Positions 2,003 to 55,822 of a stretch of 64,000 nucleotides of DNA are shown one piece after another; within the stretch, counting starts at the first letter, position 1; each line of letters starts with the position of its first letter. Both the position numbers and the translations under genes were made by a program. Under the pieces are notes generated by a model, which made no database searches, was not told the DNA's origin, and was given only the letters and a program-made list of their open reading frames with translations. Source of the stretch: Deltaproteobacteria bacterium (GTDB lineage Bacteria > Myxococcota_A > Polyangia > Polyangiales > Houyiibacteriaceae); assembly GCA_034670305.1 (NCBI GenBank), contig JAXMNT010000025.1, positions 32,001-96,000 on the forward strand, read 5' to 3'.

Positions 2003-2114
2003 CCGACGCCGATGCCGAATCCGATGCCGATGCCGATGCCGATGCCGACGCGGATGCGGACGCCGACTCCGATGCCGACCGATGCCGACGCCGACACCGA
2101 TGCCGACGCCGACG
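2003..2114 (+). repeat. Hexamer tandem array (CCGATG/CCGACG)n, locus 1
   Basis: Directly visible degenerate CCGANN units; ends about 10 bp from the stop of the 2124-3173 gene. Confidence 0.95.
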
Positions 2115-10403: not shown

Positions 10404-10439
10404 CCCTTGCCCGTGCCCGTGCCCTTGCCCTTGCCCTCG
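10404..10439 (+). repeat. (CCCTTG/CCCGTG)x6 tract
   Basis: Directly visible; the same module occurs at 55089-55138. Confidence 0.9.
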
Positions 10440-10442
10440 GTT

Positions 10443-10595
10443 CCGAAGCCGACCCCGAAGCCGAAGCCGACCCCGAAGCCGAAGCCGACCCCGAAGCCGA
10501 CCCCGAAGCCGACCCCGAAGCCGACCCCGAAGCCGACGCCGACGCCGAAGCCGACGCCGACGCCGACGCCGACGCCGAAGCACACGCCGACGCCG
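10443..10595 (+). repeat. Hexamer tandem array (CCGAAG/CCGACC/CCGACG)n, locus 2
   Basis: About 25 CCGANN units between convergent genes. Confidence 0.95.
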
Positions 10596-31291: not shown

Positions 31292-32911
31292 ATGAGCGAC
31301 GGCATCTACCAGGTTCCCCTCCCCGACAACGCGCCCGTGACGGCGTTCGAACCAGATTCGAAAGAGCGGGCGAAGCTCGACGCGGCGCTGCAATCGATGG
31401 CGGGGGAGCGCATCGAGATCCCAGCCGTGGTCGACGGCAAAGCCGTGACCGGTGGCAAGACGAGCGAGGTGGTCATGCCGCACGACCACGGGCATGTGCT
31501 CGCGACGTTGCACCACGCGAGCGCCGACACCGTGCGCGAGGCCATCGCGGGCGCGATGAAGGTCGCGCCGATGTGGGCCGCGATGCCGTTCGAAGAGCGC
31601 GCGGCGATCTTCCTGCGCGCCGCGCGTCTGCTCGAGACCACCTGGCGCATGCGCATCAACGCGTCGTGCATGCTCGGTCAGTCGAAGACCTGTCACCAGG
31701 CCGAGATCGACGCCGCGTGCGAGCTCATCGACTTCTTCAAGTTCAATGTGGCGTTTGCGCAGCAGATTCGATCGGTGCAGCCGATCTCGTCGCCGGGGAT
31801 CTGGAACCGCTCCGACTACCGGCCGCTCGAAGGCTTCGTGCTCGCGATCACGCCGTTCAACTTCCTGTCGATCGCCGTGAACCTCGCCGCCGCGCCCGCG
31901 CTGATGGGCAACGTCGTGCTCTGGAAACCGAGCAGCACCTCGGCGCTCGGCTGTCACTACGGGCTCGAACTCCTGAAGGCGGCTGGGCTTCCGGATGGGG
32001 TGATTCAGCTCATCCCCGGCGACGGCCCCGAACAGGGCACCGCCGCGCTCGAGAGCGAACACCTCGCGGGCATTCACTTCACCGGATCGACGGGGACGTT
32101 CCGCCACCTCTACCGGGGTGTGGCCGAGCGGCTCGAGTCCTACCGGACGATTCCGCGCGTGATCGGCGAGACCGGCGGCAAAGACTTCATCGTCATGCAC
32201 CCGAGCGCGGACGTGGCCACCTGCGCCACAGCCGTGGTGCGGGGCGGCTACGAGTACCAGGGACAGAAGTGTTCTGCTGCGTCGCGGCTCTACGTGCCGA
32301 AGTCGATGTGGGCCGAGCTCTCCGAGCGGGTGGCCGCCGAGCTGAAGCACGTGAAGGTCGGCGACCCCTGCGACCCGAAGAACTTCCTCGGCGCGGTCAT
32401 CGACGAGCGCGCGTTCGATCGCATCAGCGGCTACCAGAAGCTCGCGAAGGAGACCGCGTCCATCGTGGCCGGAGGCACGTCGGACAAGAGCCGGGGCTAC
32501 TTCGTCGACCCGACGCTCGTGAAGGTGGACGACCCGCACCACCGGTTGATGGAAGAAGAGATCTTCGGACCGGTCGTCACCGCGTATGTGTACGACGACG
32601 ACCAGTGGGCCGAGACCCTGGATCTGGTGGACTCGACTTCGCCCTACGCGCTGACCGGCGCCGTGTTCGCACGCGATCGGTCCGCGGTGATCGACGCGAT
32701 GGAGCGGCTCCGCAACGCCGCCGGCAACTTCTACGTGAACGACAAACCCACCGGCGCGGTCGTGGGCCAGCAGCCGTTCGGCGGCGCCCGCGCGAGCGGG
32801 ACGAACGACAAGGCCGGCGCGATGTGGAACCTGCTTCGCTGGGTGAGCCCACGTTCGATCAAAGAGAACCTCGCGCCCCCGACGGACTGGCGTTACCCGT
32901 TTTTGGGGTAG
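31292..32911 (+). CDS. pruA: L-glutamate gamma-semialdehyde (P5C) dehydrogenase
   Basis: MLGQSKT, QAEIDAACELIDF, YRPLEGFV, FTGST, GETGGKDF, EYQGQKCSA, GNFYVNDKPTGAVVGQQPFGGARASGTNDKAG. Confidence 0.95.
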   Translation: MSDGIYQVPLPDNAPVTAFEPDSKERAKLDAALQSMAGERIEIPAVVDGKAVTGGKTSEVVMPHDHGHVLATLHHASADTVREAIAGAMKVAPMWAAMPFEERAAIFLRAARLLETTWRMRINASCMLGQSKTCHQAEIDAACELIDFFKFNVAFAQQIRSVQPISSPGIWNRSDYRPLEGFVLAITPFNFLSIAVNLAAAPALMGNVVLWKPSSTSALGCHYGLELLKAAGLPDGVIQLIPGDGPEQGTAALESEHLAGIHFTGSTGTFRHLYRGVAERLESYRTIPRVIGETGGKDFIVMHPSADVATCATAVVRGGYEYQGQKCSAASRLYVPKSMWAELSERVAAELKHVKVGDPCDPKNFLGAVIDERAFDRISGYQKLAKETASIVAGGTSDKSRGYFVDPTLVKVDDPHHRLMEEEIFGPVVTAYVYDDDQWAETLDLVDSTSPYALTGAVFARDRSAVIDAMERLRNAAGNFYVNDKPTGAVVGQQPFGGARASGTNDKAGAMWNLLRWVSPRSIKENLAPPTDWRYPFLG

Positions 32912-33172: not shown

Positions 33173-33510
<338 letters not shown>

Positions 33511-33523
33511 TGCCTCCAGCGGT

Positions 33524-33631
33524 GCGCCCCTTCTCGCGGAGGTTGGTGCTGGCCCGATGGATGATCCAGCGTAGCGGTCGGCGGGGCGGCGCCTCAAAGG
33601 AGGTCTTCGTGGCCGCTCCGCCGACGCCGCT
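33524..33631. other. Conserved structured non-coding motif B, copy 1
   Basis: GCGCCCCTTCTCG..GAGGTTGG..CGTAGCGGTC..GGGCGGCGCC..AAAGGAGGYCTTCG shared with 45686-45769; helix 33573-33590/33612-33631. Confidence 0.7.
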
Positions 33632-33669
33632 CCGCTGACGCCGAAGGCCGCGGCCCGTGCCGTTTGTGG

Positions 33670-34665
33670 TCAGGCGCGGACGGCGTCGGGGGCGTGGGTC
33701 AACGCGTCTGCGTATCGGCGCACGATGGTTTCTACGGACTCGATCTCTCGAACCCCGCTCACGCTCTGGCCGGCCTGGAAGTAGTCGCGGTAGCTGCCGC
33801 CTTTGGTCGAGGCCTGCTTGAGCTGCCAGATGCTCTTCGCGGTGTAGAACATGCGGGCGTAGTGCTTGAGCTTCGGGTGGCGGAGCATTCGTTTCATCAC
33901 GAAGCCCGCTTTGGTGCCGACCTTCTTCACGTACTCGGTCTCGATCACCGCGACGGGCACGCCGGAGATCTTGTCGGTCAGCACGATGTCGTGCGCCTGC
34001 GCTTTGAGGATGGCGCGTTTGTAGTCGTCGTGCGCGTGGCACTCCTCGGTGGCGATGAACCGGGTGCCCATCTGCACTGCCGCGTAGCCGAGTCCGAGCA
34101 TGCGCGCGAAGGTCTGTTCGTCGCCCACGCCGCCGGCGCACACGAGCGGCACGCCGAGGTCGCCGAGCTCTTCGATGAGCCGCTCCGGCGCTTGTTCGCC
34201 AGCGTGGCCGCCGGCCTGGCGGTTCACGCAGATGAGTCCGTCCACCCCCGCGTCGAGCGCCTTCTGGGCCCACTTGCGCTCGGTCACGTCGTGGTAGACG
34301 ACGCCGCCCACCGAGTGCACCAGTTCCACCACCCAGTCCGGGTTGCCGAGCGCGGTGACGAAGAAACGCACGCCCTCGTCGAGCGCGATGTCCACCCAGC
34401 GCTTCATGCGGTCCAAGTACACCTGCGAGCTCTTCTCGACGATGGCGTTGAACCCGATCGGCTTGTCGGTGGTGCGGCGGATGAGCCGGATGCCTTCCCG
34501 CAGCTCGTGTTTGTGCACGAACGACATCGAGATCGGCTGGATGACCCCCATGCCGCCGGCTTTCGCGACCGCGGCGATGAGCTCGGGGTTGGAGCAGGGG
34601 TACATCGCGCCACAGATGAGCGGGACGTCGACGCCGGTGTGTTTCAGAAACGCGTTCTCGGACAT
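33670..34665 (-). CDS. Nitronate monooxygenase / FabK-like FMN oxidoreductase
   Basis: PLICGAM, AGGMG, AGGHAG, LVCAGGVG, AVQMGTRFIATEEC, QAGQSV. Confidence 0.92.
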   Translation of the reverse strand: MSENAFLKHTGVDVPLICGAMYPCSNPELIAAVAKAGGMGVIQPISMSFVHKHELREGIRLIRRTTDKPIGFNAIVEKSSQVYLDRMKRWVDIALDEGVRFFVTALGNPDWVVELVHSVGGVVYHDVTERKWAQKALDAGVDGLICVNRQAGGHAGEQAPERLIEELGDLGVPLVCAGGVGDEQTFARMLGLGYAAVQMGTRFIATEECHAHDDYKRAILKAQAHDIVLTDKISGVPVAVIETEYVKKVGTKAGFVMKRMLRHPKLKHYARMFYTAKSIWQLKQASTKGGSYRDYFQAGQSVSGVREIESVETIVRRYADALTHAPDAVRA

Positions 34666-44751: not shown

Positions 44752-45028
44752 CTGCACGGTGAGAGCTGTCAGCCGCGTGAGCTGATGAAGTACGTGGATG
44801 GTCGTGGTGAGCCGACGCGTGGGTTCACGGTCGAGTCGTTCTCGGCCAGCTCCGCCGAGGACCCAGACTCCTCGCCCGGCTTCACGGGGAATGGCTGCCG
44901 CTCGAAACGTCAGTCGAGCGGGCGTTCGTCGAGTTGGCCGAAGAGGGTGTGGTGCGAGACGACGGCGGAACGTGGTTCTTCGTGGCCGGTCCTGTGCTGT
45001 ATGGATGAAGGTCGGGGATGGGCTAGGC

Positions 45029-45220
45029 GCTGTTGCTGCTGACTGCTGGTGCTTCTGCAGCTGACCCGTTGCTGGAAGCGGATGCTGTTGCTGACTCTGC
45101 GTCGACGCTGCTGCTGACGCTGCAGCTGACGCTGCTGCTGACTCTGCGGCTGACGCTGCTGCTGACTCTGCAGCTGACGCTGCAGCTGACTCTGCAGCTG
45201 ACCTGACTCTGCAGCTGACC
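45029..45220 (+). repeat. Degenerate 12-mer array (GCTGACTCTGCA/GCTGACGCTGCT)n
   Basis: Directly visible; related to the array at 55188-55419. Confidence 0.9.
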
Positions 45221-45240
45221 ACTGCTCTGTTGTGTGGTGT

Positions 45241-45358
45241 GAACTCCCCCACACTCTCCCGAACTCCCCCGAACTCTCCCTGAACCAACGAACCCGCGGT
45301 CGGTGGCTGCACCCTGGGCAGGAGTGAGTCGTCGACGAGAAGGTTGACGGCGGTTCTG
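45241..45358. other. Conserved non-coding motif A, copy 1 (with 4x10-bp GAACTCYCCC repeat)
   Basis: Blocks CTCTCCC, AACCAA, GCAGGAG, ACGAGAA and GCGGTT are colinear without gaps with 55474-55555 (constant offset 10200). Confidence 0.65.
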
Positions 45359-45363
45359 CAAAT

Positions 45364-45663
45364 CCGACGCCGAAGCCGAAGCCGACGCCGACGCCGATGC
45401 CGAAGCCGAAGCCGATGCCGATGCCGACGCCGAAGCCGAAGCCGACGCCGAAGCCGAATCCGAAGCCGAAGCCGAAGCCGACGCCGACGCCGAAGCCGAC
45501 GCCGAAGCCGAAGCCGACGCCGACGCCGACGCCGAAGCCGACGCCGAACCCGACGCCGAACCCGAAGCCGACGCCGAAGCTGATGCCGACGAAGCCGAAC
45601 CCGACGCCGACCCCGACCCCGACGCCGACGCCGACACCGAACCTGATGCCGACGACGCCGATG
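45364..45663 (+). repeat. Hexamer tandem array (CCGANN)n, locus 4a
   Basis: About 50 units between motif A and motif B. Confidence 0.95.
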
Positions 45664-45685
45664 GAACACCCAACGGAACACTGCC

Positions 45686-45861
45686 GCGCCCCTTCTCGTC
45701 AGAGGTTGGCTTGCCCGCGGGGTGTCCGACCGTAGCGGTCTGGGCGGCGCCGCGTAAAGGAGGCCTTCGGCCCGGCGGGATGCCCGCCGCTTCACTGCGC
45801 GCTTCGCGCTTGCTCGTCCTTGACCCGGCACCACCCAGACCGCTGAGGGCGCTTCGCGCCC
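45686..45861. other. Conserved structured non-coding motif B, copy 2 (upstream of the four-helix-bundle gene)
   Basis: Shared with 33524-33609; helix AGCGGTCTGGG (45734-45744)/CCCAGACCGCT (45834-45844) encloses several small hairpins. Confidence 0.7.
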
Positions 45862-45904
45862 CCGGGCAGTTCGCTCGGAAGGCTGACGACCGGGAGGTCC
45901 TACG

Positions 45905-46216
45905 ATGCTGGTATTCGACAAGTCGCTTCTTCTTCTCTCTTTGCTGGTGCGCGAGGTTCTGCCTCGCATTCGCGAGGCGTCGTTGAAGTCGCAGCTGCGG
46001 CGCGCGGCGCAGGCGGTTCCTCTGCTCATTGCGGAGTCTCGGAGCGCGCGGGGTGGGCGGAACCCGGACGGGTTCTCGCGCGCCCTGGGCGAAGCGCGCG
46101 AGGTGAAGGCGGCTCTTCAGGTGGCGGCGGTGATGGGGTACGTCGAGGCGAGTGACGACGTGTACGACTTGGCGGACCACGTCTGCGCGATGTTGTTCAA
46201 GCTGAGTCGGACGTAG
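45905..46216 (+). CDS. Four helix bundle protein (23S rRNA IVP / Avd-like superfamily)
   Basis: 103 aa, all helical; SQLRRAAQAVPLLIAE (consensus QLRRAAxSxPxNIAEG), RALGEARE (A.GS..E), A..MGYV, AMLFKL; GGGAGG RBS at 45892-45897. Confidence 0.82.
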   Translation: MLVFDKSLLLLSLLVREVLPRIREASLKSQLRRAAQAVPLLIAESRSARGGRNPDGFSRALGEAREVKAALQVAAVMGYVEASDDVYDLADHVCAMLFKLSRT

Positions 46217-46263
46217 GTGGCTCCGGCGGAGCGTCCGTTGGGGGCGCTCCGCTCCGCTCCGCT

Positions 46264-46394
46264 CCGACTCCGAAGCCGAAGCCGAAGCCGAAGCCGAAGC
46301 CGAAGCCGAAGCCGAACGCGACGCCGAAACTGATGCCGAACCCGACGCCGAACGCGACGCCGAACCCGACGCGGACGCCGACCCCGACTTCCGA
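46264..46394 (+). repeat. Hexamer tandem array (CCGAAG...)n, locus 4b
   Basis: Follows a hairpin (46226-46252) and a (GCTCC)n run; abuts the stop of the 46395-47333 gene. Confidence 0.95.
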
Positions 46395-55088: not shown

Positions 55089-55138
55089 CCCGTGCCCGTG
55101 CCCGAGGGCGTCGTTCCTTGCCCTTGCCCCTGCCCTTG
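55089..55138 (+). repeat. CCCGTG/CCCTTG tract
   Basis: Same module as 10404-10439; followed by a short CCGAAG/CCGACG run at 55165-55184. Confidence 0.8.
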
Positions 55139-55187
55139 GGGTCCTAAGGGGCTGCGTTGGAGTTCGAAGCCGACGCCGAAGCCGCAT

Positions 55188-55419
55188 GCTGATTGCCGCT
55201 GATTCTGCCGCTGATTCTGCCGCTGATTCTGCCGCTGATGCTGCCGCTGATGCTGCCGCTGATGCTGCCGCTGATTCTGCCGCTGATGCTGCCGCTGATG
55301 CTGCCGCTGATGCTGCCGCTGATGCTGCCGCTGATGCTGCCGCTGATGCTGCCGCTGATGCTGCCGCTGATGCTGTCGCTGATGCTGCCGCTGATGCTGC
55401 CGCTGATGCTGCCGCTGAC
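55188..55419 (+). repeat. 12-mer tandem array (GCTGATGCTGCC/GCTGATTCTGCC) x about 19
   Basis: Near-perfect tandem units. Confidence 0.97.
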
Positions 55420-55464
55420 GGTGCCCGGGGATGGGCGCATGCCCCGCCGCTGCTGCGTCCCTCC

Positions 55465-55555
55465 AACTCCCCCCTCTCCCGAAACCAAACCAAGAGCCGA
55501 CGAGAACCGGCCACCAAGCAGGAGAGCCCCGCCCACGAGAAACAATCCAGCGGTT
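55465..55555. other. Conserved non-coding motif A, copy 2
   Basis: AACTCCCCC, CTCTCCC, GCAGGAG, ACGAGAA and GCGGTT; the last four have the same spacing as in 45274-45355. Confidence 0.65.
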
Positions 55556-55683
55556 GGCTCTGGGGCTCAACCGGAATGACTGGTGACTTGCCAAGCGTGC
55601 ACGTGGTCATGCCTGCGGGCGTTGCGTGACTTGTCGGCGCCCCTCCGTTTTGGGGGGAGTTCCGTCGCAGAAACCCCAGGGTG

Positions 55684-55822
55684 CCGAAGCCGGACGCCGA
55701 CGCCGAAGCCGATGCCGATGCCGAAGCCGATGCCGACGCCGAAGCCGAAGCCGACGCCGAAGCCGATGCCGATGCCGATGCCGAAGCCGAAGCCGATGCC
55801 GATGCCGATGCCGATGCCGACC
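55684..55822 (+). repeat. Hexamer tandem array (CCGATG/CCGAAG/CCGACG)n, locus 5
   Basis: About 23 units ending 16 bp from the stop of the 55839-57215 gene. Confidence 0.95.

Follow-up and report, generated by a model that had tools for sequence, protein, structure and literature searches.

Repeat-flanked four-helix-bundle gene cassettes with a structured leader in a Polyangiales genome and its relatives

We analyzed a 64,000-nt stretch of a Polyangiales genome (the window: positions 32,001 to 96,000 of contig JAXMNT010000025.1, assembly GCA_034670305.1) in which the gene for a small four-helix-bundle (4HB) protein stands between arrays of the hexanucleotide unit CCGANN, behind a structured leader and ahead of a hairpin. 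We found that this cassette (45364-46388) is one of 14 copies of one subfamily of 4HB genes, S1, that a covarying leader fold and an upstream tandem array go with the gene across subfamilies, and that a similar design, built with lineage-specific repeat units, recurs in related genomes. Our preferred reading, which we hold with moderate confidence, is that the window cassette belongs to a family of small, dispersed gene cassettes found across the lineage, each of which would work as a self-contained expression unit. Throughout, G000 is the study genome (7.93 Mb in 105 contigs, 68% G+C; the window is G000:C25:32001-96000), copies are named by contig (e.g. C46), and the other G numbers (G002, G005, G012, G013 and G030) are genomes of relatives in the same order.

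The cassette belongs to a dispersed gene family

An earlier reading of the window from its letters alone (the sequence-only reading) had assigned the gene product to the 4HB family, and hidden Markov model searches agree with this assignment: the product matches PF05635 at 42.6 bits (cut-off 33.8) and TIGR02436 at 43.5 bits (cut-off 24). PF05635 is a very large protein family; to our knowledge, the only role assigned within it is that of Avd in diversity-generating retroelements (DGRs), and we know of no function for its stand-alone members or for those in rRNA intervening sequences (IVSs). The sequence of the window protein also matches PDB 2gsc_A (E 3.5e-6), and an AlphaFold2 model (predicted local distance difference test score, pLDDT, 92.8) has four helices (2-21, 25-47, 54-76 and 84-102). 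When this model was compared with known structures by Foldseek, the closest were 2rld (template modeling score, TM, 0.87) and 2gsc (TM 0.83), crystal entries with five chains each, while Avd (4DWL, 8UB7) reached TM 0.67-0.72. PMC10053308 places the 4HB family and DGR Avd in a common family. None of the PADLOC models matched the open reading frame (ORF).

The study genome contains 48 PF05635 matches, 39 of them above cut-off, which sort by translation into four subfamilies: S1 (14 copies, 12 intact, the window gene among them), S2a (about 9 copies), S2b (about 14) and S3 (about 12, many broken or at contig ends). As had been proposed, the gene-bearing unit is dispersed, since leader, gene and hairpin recur together at 13 further places, at 82-89% identity and between unrelated genes. 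Homology among the S1 copies spans the stretch from array to hairpin, and the S1, S2a and S2b cassettes lie mostly in convergent gaps. Two further modules, a 12-mer array and a C-rich motif A upstream of the CCGANN array, had also been counted as parts of the cassette; this did not hold up, as they are shared only partly and with a single other copy (C46). A blastn search with motif A returned 17 rows, itself included, and at two of these places a 4HB gene is close by (C46:27210 and C1:195233). Because the homology of the 12-mer array and motif A reaches only C46, we take the conserved unit to be array, leader, ORF and hairpin, with a second array in some copies.

Most copies of the gene are under purifying selection. 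The ratio of nonsynonymous to synonymous divergence (dN/dS, Nei-Gojobori) is 0.055 in S1 (66 pairs), 0.086 in S2a and 0.138 in S2b, at a dS of 0.43-0.61. For singleton changes, which are private to one copy, (n/N)/(s/S) is 0.15-0.22, and this indicates that selection has acted on individual copies after duplication. Pairwise identity among S1 copies is 93.5% in the leader core compared to 87% in the ORF, despite a dS of about 0.6. In one pair of copies (C10 and C46), identity is 100% over the block from -40 to +319, 85-88% in the leader and less than 75% downstream; the block is a gene-conversion tract.

The gene-less loci of the window had been read as non-autonomous derivatives of a gene-carrying element, and part of this idea stands. 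We found eight gene-less leader relics in the study genome, six of them directly behind a CCGANN array, including the locus at 33.2 kb of the window. However, because the copies are old (dS of about 0.6) and under purifying selection, a simple split into autonomous and non-autonomous members of a recently active transposon does not fit, and most arrays carry no leader relic.

The S3 genes, at G000:C14:16250-17050 and ten other loci, sit in a unit of about 610 nt with copies that are 80-100% identical. Many of these copies are disrupted by internal insertions or frame shifts, and five lie at contig ends.

A covarying leader fold accompanies the gene

Between the upstream array and the gene lies the region that had been called motif B, with a leader of about 200 nt. 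This region is not coding, as indel lengths in its loops do not keep to multiples of three. For 13 S1 copies, RNAalifold predicts a long stem that encloses a three-way junction and is followed by two hairpins; in the window copy the junction is closed by TCAAGG...CCTTGAC. A covariance model built from 11 S1 leaders only (R1) matches the window leader at 45711-45881 with 141.8 bits and finds 37 matches genome-wide, of which 35 are sense and two are weak antisense echoes. Four of the sense matches are gene-less, and the other 31 lie directly upstream of a 4HB gene (14 S1, 7 S2a and 10 S2b). The three subfamilies S1, S2a and S2b thus share one homologous leader fold.

Of the 64 pairs, 36 change on both sides among the 29 best sense leaders. 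In these leaders, 92.6% of the cells pair, as against 78.6% when shuffled and 41-43% when slid; none of 500 shuffles attained the observed score. Many cells are G.U, and leaders score 122-192 bits in the sense orientation versus 25-37 bits in antisense, which favors the sense strand as the one that folds. Of 60 leaders from five genomes, 55 lengthen the junction helix T[CA]AA...TTGAC by at least three further pairs, and these occur in six or more compensatory states. In a swap control on 53 of these 60 leaders (those of G000 and G012), 48 of 53 pass with their own partner, whereas a mean of 14.6 of 53 pass when partners are swapped between subfamilies. Together, these leader comparisons show a conserved, covarying sense-strand fold whose association with the gene predates the split of the subfamilies and genera.

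The leader matches no Rfam family: Rfam gave no match in the window at gathering score, rRNA included, and in E-value mode only four weak matches, of which three fall on the 12-mer array region, one at 44918-44968 and none on the leader (isrG reached 29.5 bits against a gathering score of 100). The invariant TTGAC is not followed by a -10 box 17 nt downstream in any subfamily.

Several otherwise conserved leaders carry insertions of about 70-80 nt at loop positions (C10:57107-57362, C28, C68 and C19, and in G012 L071, L073 and L074). The same insert is common to several copies and looks like a miniature insertion element.

Tandem arrays are concentrated upstream of the gene

The sequence-only reading had expected arrays and 4HB genes to be associated genome-wide, and this is what we observe. 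Among the intact S1, S2a and S2b genes of G000, 30 out of 32 have a tandem array (30 nt or longer) in the 450 nt upstream, compared to 20% of other genes (1112 out of 5590; 420 out of 1088 where the upstream gap is 300 nt or more; genes were called with a crude finder based on G+C at third codon positions, GC3). The array type is specific to the subfamily. In S1, a same-strand CCGANN array lies upstream of 12 of the 14 copies, and 4 of the 12 intact copies also have a direct array downstream; the two copies without an upstream array (C16 and C78) have an intact gene. S2a has direct CCGCTN arrays on both sides in at least 5 of 8 copies, and S2b has CAGCNN upstream and CTTCGG about 45 nt downstream. 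The S3 arrays form inverted arms, with (CCCKTG)5 upstream and (CAMGGG)5 downstream in all six complete copies. We found no such inverted arms around S1, S2a or S2b, except for two short inverted matches (22 nt and 33 nt). When 600 nt upstream were compared to 400 nt downstream, 11 of 12 S1 copies, including that of the window, had no inverted match, and C10 had one of 22 nt.

The arrays themselves are variable. S1 arrays range from 36 to about 290 nt, and the units CCGAAG, CCGACG, CCGATG and CCGAAT vary freely within the subfamily. A pattern of six CCGANN units occurs 9647 times in G000, while its backward reading occurs 359 times. In total, 296 kb (3.7%) of the genome consist of tandem repeats, and the unit types that flank the four 4HB subfamilies account for 95.8 of the 104.1 kb of period-6 repeats, although they are also simply the commonest units genome-wide. 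Since about 600 of the roughly 630 CCGANN arrays have no leader relic, most arrays are not demonstrably derived from a cassette.

We made several further observations on these arrays. They occur in 177 of 936 convergent gaps and in 244 of 3696 tandem gaps, and are about three times more frequent per convergent gap than elsewhere. There is a moderate correlation between local GC skew and the strand on which a CCGANN array lies (388 concordant, 242 discordant). According to the crude gene finder, 120 of 630 arrays lie within predicted genes, and hexamer arrays that are read in frame yield long Glu-Ala or Asp-Ser stretches in predicted proteins (G000:C23:92788-94872 and the ORF upstream of C77:1-108). 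Arrays of (CCCKTG)n, the unit of the S3 arms, stand within 120 nt upstream of about 100 of 625 CCGANN arrays genome-wide; two of them, at 10404-10437 and 55089-55138 of the window, are directly upstream of CCGANN arrays.

Related genomes share the design with units of their own

To see how far the association reaches, we looked at other genomes of the same order, in seven of which arrays of lineage-specific units and a strong leader structure lie upstream of 4HB genes. Across 31 genomes, the 4HB copy number correlates with the count of CCGANN patterns (Spearman 0.77, to which no probability is attached, as kin are non-independent), and the 11 genomes without a CCGANN array have only 0-2 4HB genes each. 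The 30 4HB genes of G012, a genome from another genus, form three main subfamilies. In subfamily A, same-strand CCGANN arrays end 225-310 nt 5' of the start in all five genes; in subfamily C, seven of nine intact genes have the same arrays by the strict pattern, and the other two have degenerate units; subfamily B has (GTCTCA)n arrays instead. About 166 of the 1094 CCGANN pattern matches of this genome (about 15%) fall within the 30 4HB loci, which make up about 1% of it. In five further genomes, an upstream array with a lineage-specific unit was found at 28 of 30 4HB loci, the other two being cut at the start, although these counts come without a background rate. Similarly, (CACTGN)5 occurs 171 times in G002, compared to once for a control pattern, and among the 100 places listed, 8 of about 18 (CACTGN)n loci abut a 4HB gene, while 4HB genes make up far less than 1% of the genome.

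The leaders of the relatives are always strongly folded and are of several types: some have the TCAAGG..CCTTGAC junction, some are perfect hairpins of 28-30 bp that hold the Shine-Dalgarno sequence, and some have GCGAAAG..CTTTCGC. Cassette DNA has only short, chance-level matches in 30 relatives. R1 found no match in these 30 genomes, a weak test in which only 89 candidates per genome were scored, and on the G012 loci it gave E values of at least 0.1. A broader model (R2) gave seven weak matches (E<0.1) on 27 G012 loci, all in sense orientation and directly upstream of a 4HB gene.

Two other features of 4HB loci came up in these comparisons. In G002, G012, G013 and G030, 4HB genes often form convergent pairs of two different subfamilies, 45-120 nt apart, in which each gene has its own leader and outer array; in G002, the outer arrays are mutually direct. 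In addition, a marine metagenome run of low depth (X5) contains a 263-nt contig that differs at one position from the S1 ORF at 45941-46203 of the window. The same organism or a very close one therefore occurs outside the study whose four metagenome runs cover most of the window.

Layout of the window copy

All seven modules that had been claimed were found in the window by direct reading and Tandem Repeats Finder (TRF), in the order claimed and on the + strand (Table 1). The cassette is placed between protein-coding genes, and its upstream and downstream arrays match each other directly over 125 nt at 85%. The hairpin after the stop codon is terminator-like with no U tract, and the alignment of S1 copies preserves its stem through GAGCG/CGCTC, GTGCG/CGCAC and GGGCG/CGCCC variants.

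The further claim, that subsets of the modules recur in the same orientation without the gene, was confirmed: CCGANN arrays are present near 2.0, 10.4, 33.2 and 55.7 kb, with a motif-B fragment at 33.2 kb. The 12-mer array at 55.2-55.5 kb has a different unit. A C-rich stretch at 55.2-55.5 kb that resembles motif A was seen by eye and was not reported by blastn at E<=1e-3. At the 33.2-kb relic, tblastn with four 4HB proteins found no match.

Table 1. Features of the cassette and of related repeat loci, in window coordinates.
Feature	Position	Strand	Remarks
12/24-mer tandem array (GCTGACGCTGCW)n	45029-45220	+	TRF 45077-45202 (period 24 x5.3; period 12 x8.2), 45186-45220
Motif A, C-rich, contains 10-mer x4.4 at 45241-45285	45221-45362	+	separate dispersed repeat
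Upstream array (CCGANN)x48.7	45364-45652	+	TRF and regular expression; same orientation as gene
Motif B region	45653-45904	+	
Structured leader (within motif B)	45686-45904	+	long stem enclosing three-way junction, then two hairpins, then Shine-Dalgarno
Shine-Dalgarno GGGAGG	45892-45897	+	7 nt 5' of ATG
4HB ORF, 103 aa, subfamily S1	45905-46216	+	
GC-rich hairpin 3' of stop codon, 12-bp stem	46225-46253	+	-31.3 kcal/mol, z only -1.6
Downstream (CCGANN)n array	46264-46388	+	TRF 46270-46381, 46336-46388; direct relative to upstream array
Solo CCGANN array	2003-2114	+	
Compound array (CCCKTG)n then (CCGANN)n	10404-10595	+	CCGANN part 10443-10595
Gene-less relic: (CCGANN)x51.5 then 5' half of leader, no ORF	33192-33677	+	array 33192-33502 (TRF); blastn 33524-33609; R1 match 33550-33677, E 0.004
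Composite repeat region: (CCCKTG)n, 12-mer (TGCCGCTGATGC)x18.8, C-rich motif-A-like stretch, about 170 nt unique, (CCGANN)x23	55089-55822	+	CCGANN part 55682-55822

Proposed working of the cassette

We propose that the leader is a cis-acting RNA that would control how the 4HB message is processed or translated. With its 24 pairs, the stem could be a substrate like those cut by RNase III in rRNA IVSs, and the leader may also be bound by its own 4HB oligomer. Rather than by a dedicated transposase, the cassette would be multiplied and homogenized by homologous recombination and gene conversion through the flanking arrays and paralogous copies, and the loci that consist of an array only, or of an array and a leader fragment, may be relics left behind by such recombination. 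No terminal inverted repeats were found around the cassette, and a search of G000 for TnpB (PF07282) gave none. Target-site duplications are unreadable because the arrays mask the ends of the element.

It is important to point out that several observations weigh against this proposal. Transcription of the leader, its 5' end, its cutting by RNase III and its binding by the protein are all steps that we infer, and a pattern scan for sigma-70-like promoters and intrinsic terminators found none. The independent changes behind the covariation are fewer than the cell counts suggest, because the alignment is fitted to the model and its rows represent only three subfamilies. Paralogues that were copied together with their array are also non-independent points in the enrichment within the genome. 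Recombination between arrays leaves the first arrival of an array at a new site unexplained, and the roughly 600 CCGANN arrays without a leader relic imply that arrays can spread without a cassette. Finally, synteny is lost at this junction in the relatives searched, which belong to other genera: orthologues of the 572-aa and 1218-aa flanking genes are neighbors in none of them (G005:C638 has a 4HB gene near a homologue of the 1218-aa gene, but with different intervening genes), and the contigs of the four metagenome DNA runs end at arrays and bridge none.

Alternative explanations

We considered several other accounts of the same observations. One is that transcription of the array yields a repeat RNA to which the 4HB oligomer binds, either as in a type III toxin-antitoxin system or with the protein as an Avd-like chaperone, so that the module would serve in addiction or defense. 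This would fit the order of array, strong structure and small gene, which is constant across subfamilies and genera, the use of one unit per subfamily, the resemblance of the fold to RNA-binding Avd and the purifying selection on the copies. However, both unit sequence and array length drift within a subfamily, as in neutral microsatellites, C16 and C78 keep their gene without an upstream array, and the protein has neither a PADLOC match nor an endoribonuclease fold. We regard this explanation as unlikely.

A bolder extension of our own reading gets a similarly low probability from us: the 4HB cassettes could be the source of the microsatellite load of the lineage. The 4HB oligomer and the leader would then promote slippage, template switching or recombination at the edge of the cassette and thereby seed and spread subfamily-specific arrays, and the roughly 600 solo arrays would be footprints of a protein-assisted, repeat-generating element of a kind undescribed in bacteria.

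It could also be that the gene is an ordinary paralogous family in the spacer DNA of a microsatellite-rich genome, with no functional or historical link between array and gene. A genome that is 3.7% tandem repeats, in which 20-39% of other genes have an upstream array, some 600 arrays show no trace of a cassette and convergent gaps are enriched as expected for neutral repeats, makes such chance neighborhood conceivable. We nevertheless consider it quite unlikely, given that an array precedes nearly all (30 out of 32) of the 4HB genes, with distance and orientation fixed, that the design is found in seven other genomes with different units, and that (CACTGN)n in G002 and the arrays of G012 are concentrated at 4HB loci.

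The two remaining alternatives involve an enzyme acting in trans, as the sequence-only reading had envisaged. Genes for reverse transcriptases (RTs) and for Y1 transposases similar to the tyrosine transposases associated with repetitive extragenic palindromes (REPs; the transposases are known as RAYTs) do occur in the genome, but we found no link between them and the cassette.

In the first of these, an element mobilized by an HUH/Y1 protein, the leader would be a single-stranded DNA recognition hairpin. G000 has eleven Y1 transposase-like genes (PF01797 at 36-40 bits, about 195-245 aa, IS200/RAYT-like), the fold energy of the leader is equal on both strands, its long stem begins with CGTAGC, and S2 leaders have TGTAGCC and a hairpin. 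GTAG 5' of a hairpin is a hallmark of REPs. Against this, the Y1 genes lie inside a repeated element of their own, with conserved flanks of 250-400 nt that contain inverted matches and have no similarity to the cassette modules, and only one of the eleven is near an array. Moreover, the G.U cells favor the sense strand, and the G012 leaders have no GTAG. The S2 GTAG hairpin motif (GTAGCCTC..CCTTCGG) has only 16 copies, 15 of them beside 4HB genes, and is therefore not a genome-wide REP. Mobilization of this kind seems very unlikely to us.

In the second, which we consider highly improbable and which the gene context already weakly refutes, the 4HB protein would act like DGR Avd together with an RT in trans, and the arrays would arise from reiterated templated synthesis. 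The family does include Avd, according to PMC10053308, and one of the three RT genes of G000 (G000:C67:13722-19680, C23:81942-87260 and C10:168215-169534), that on C67, lies 4.7 kb downstream of an S1 cassette. Yet all three are retron type XIII RTs (PADLOC RT_XIII, 504-517 bits), the other two loci have no R1 match, only 1 of the 14 S1 copies is near an RT, and the structural model is nearer to 2gsc and 2rld than to Avd. Around the gene, only tandem arrays were seen and no pair of template and variable repeats, although no search aimed at such repeats was made. Two genes upstream of the C67 RT match HEAT/WGR and SWIM models. The C23 RT likewise has two upstream genes of similar size.

Comparison with known systems and significance

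Our preferred reading, a family of self-contained 4HB cassettes spread by recombination, can be compared with several described systems. One is the ORF-bearing IVS of 23S rRNA, for example that of Coxiella burnetii (with S23p), whose protein belongs to the same family and which is, like the cassette, a small, selfish-looking unit with strong stems. In this IVS, according to PMC4990558, RNase III excises the element at the stem, and the ORF is described as decaying. In contrast, the cassette lies outside rRNA genes; in S1, the stem does not enclose the gene, direct arrays flank it, and purifying selection on it is strong. We rejected an rRNA IVS for the window copy, as there is no rRNA in the window at the Rfam gathering score and no inverted repeats enclose the cassette. 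Inverted arms that bracket the gene as in an IVS are found in G000 only in S3. The S1 cassette is a PF05635 variant with direct arrays and a separate three-way-junction leader, distinct from S3 with its inverted arms.

Other candidates were rejected as well. DGR Avd shares the 4HB fold, but its sequence identity is only 10-11%, and there is no DGR-type RT among the three of the genome and none adjacent to the window cassette. In type III toxin-antitoxin systems (ToxIN), a repeat array with structured units of about 34-36 nt, a hairpin and a small protein gene follow each other, and the toxin (ToxN/AbiQ) is an endoribonuclease. The cassette has a similar layout on one strand, but its units are 6 nt long and drift freely, and its protein is a PF05635 helical bundle with no PADLOC match, so this assignment was also dropped. 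A REP/RAYT system was rejected because the flanks of the 11 Y1 genes are unlike the cassette and the GTAG hairpin motif has 16 copies. Lastly, the simple-sequence repeats of prokaryotes, or variable-number tandem repeats, likewise include hexanucleotide arrays that vary in length and are mostly intergenic. Unlike in plain repeats of this kind, the main units here are those that flank 4HB subfamilies, and the arrays abut a conserved gene and leader across genera. We found no published description of repeat-flanked, stand-alone 4HB cassettes outside rRNA, nor of hexanucleotide arrays in myxobacteria; the Pfam-composition supplement of PMC10053308, which lies outside this comparison, may bear on the contexts of PF05635.

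Overall, our findings offer three handles on the function of PF05635: a covariation-supported leader that accompanies the gene in five or more genera, purifying selection that acts on dozens of paralogues in each genome, and a tight link, across genera, to short arrays whose unit differs by subfamily. They make three ideas testable, namely that the protein binds RNA, that RNase III processes the leader, and that the arrays mediate recombination. The findings further suggest a tie between a single gene family and much of the unusual microsatellite content that these genomes have.

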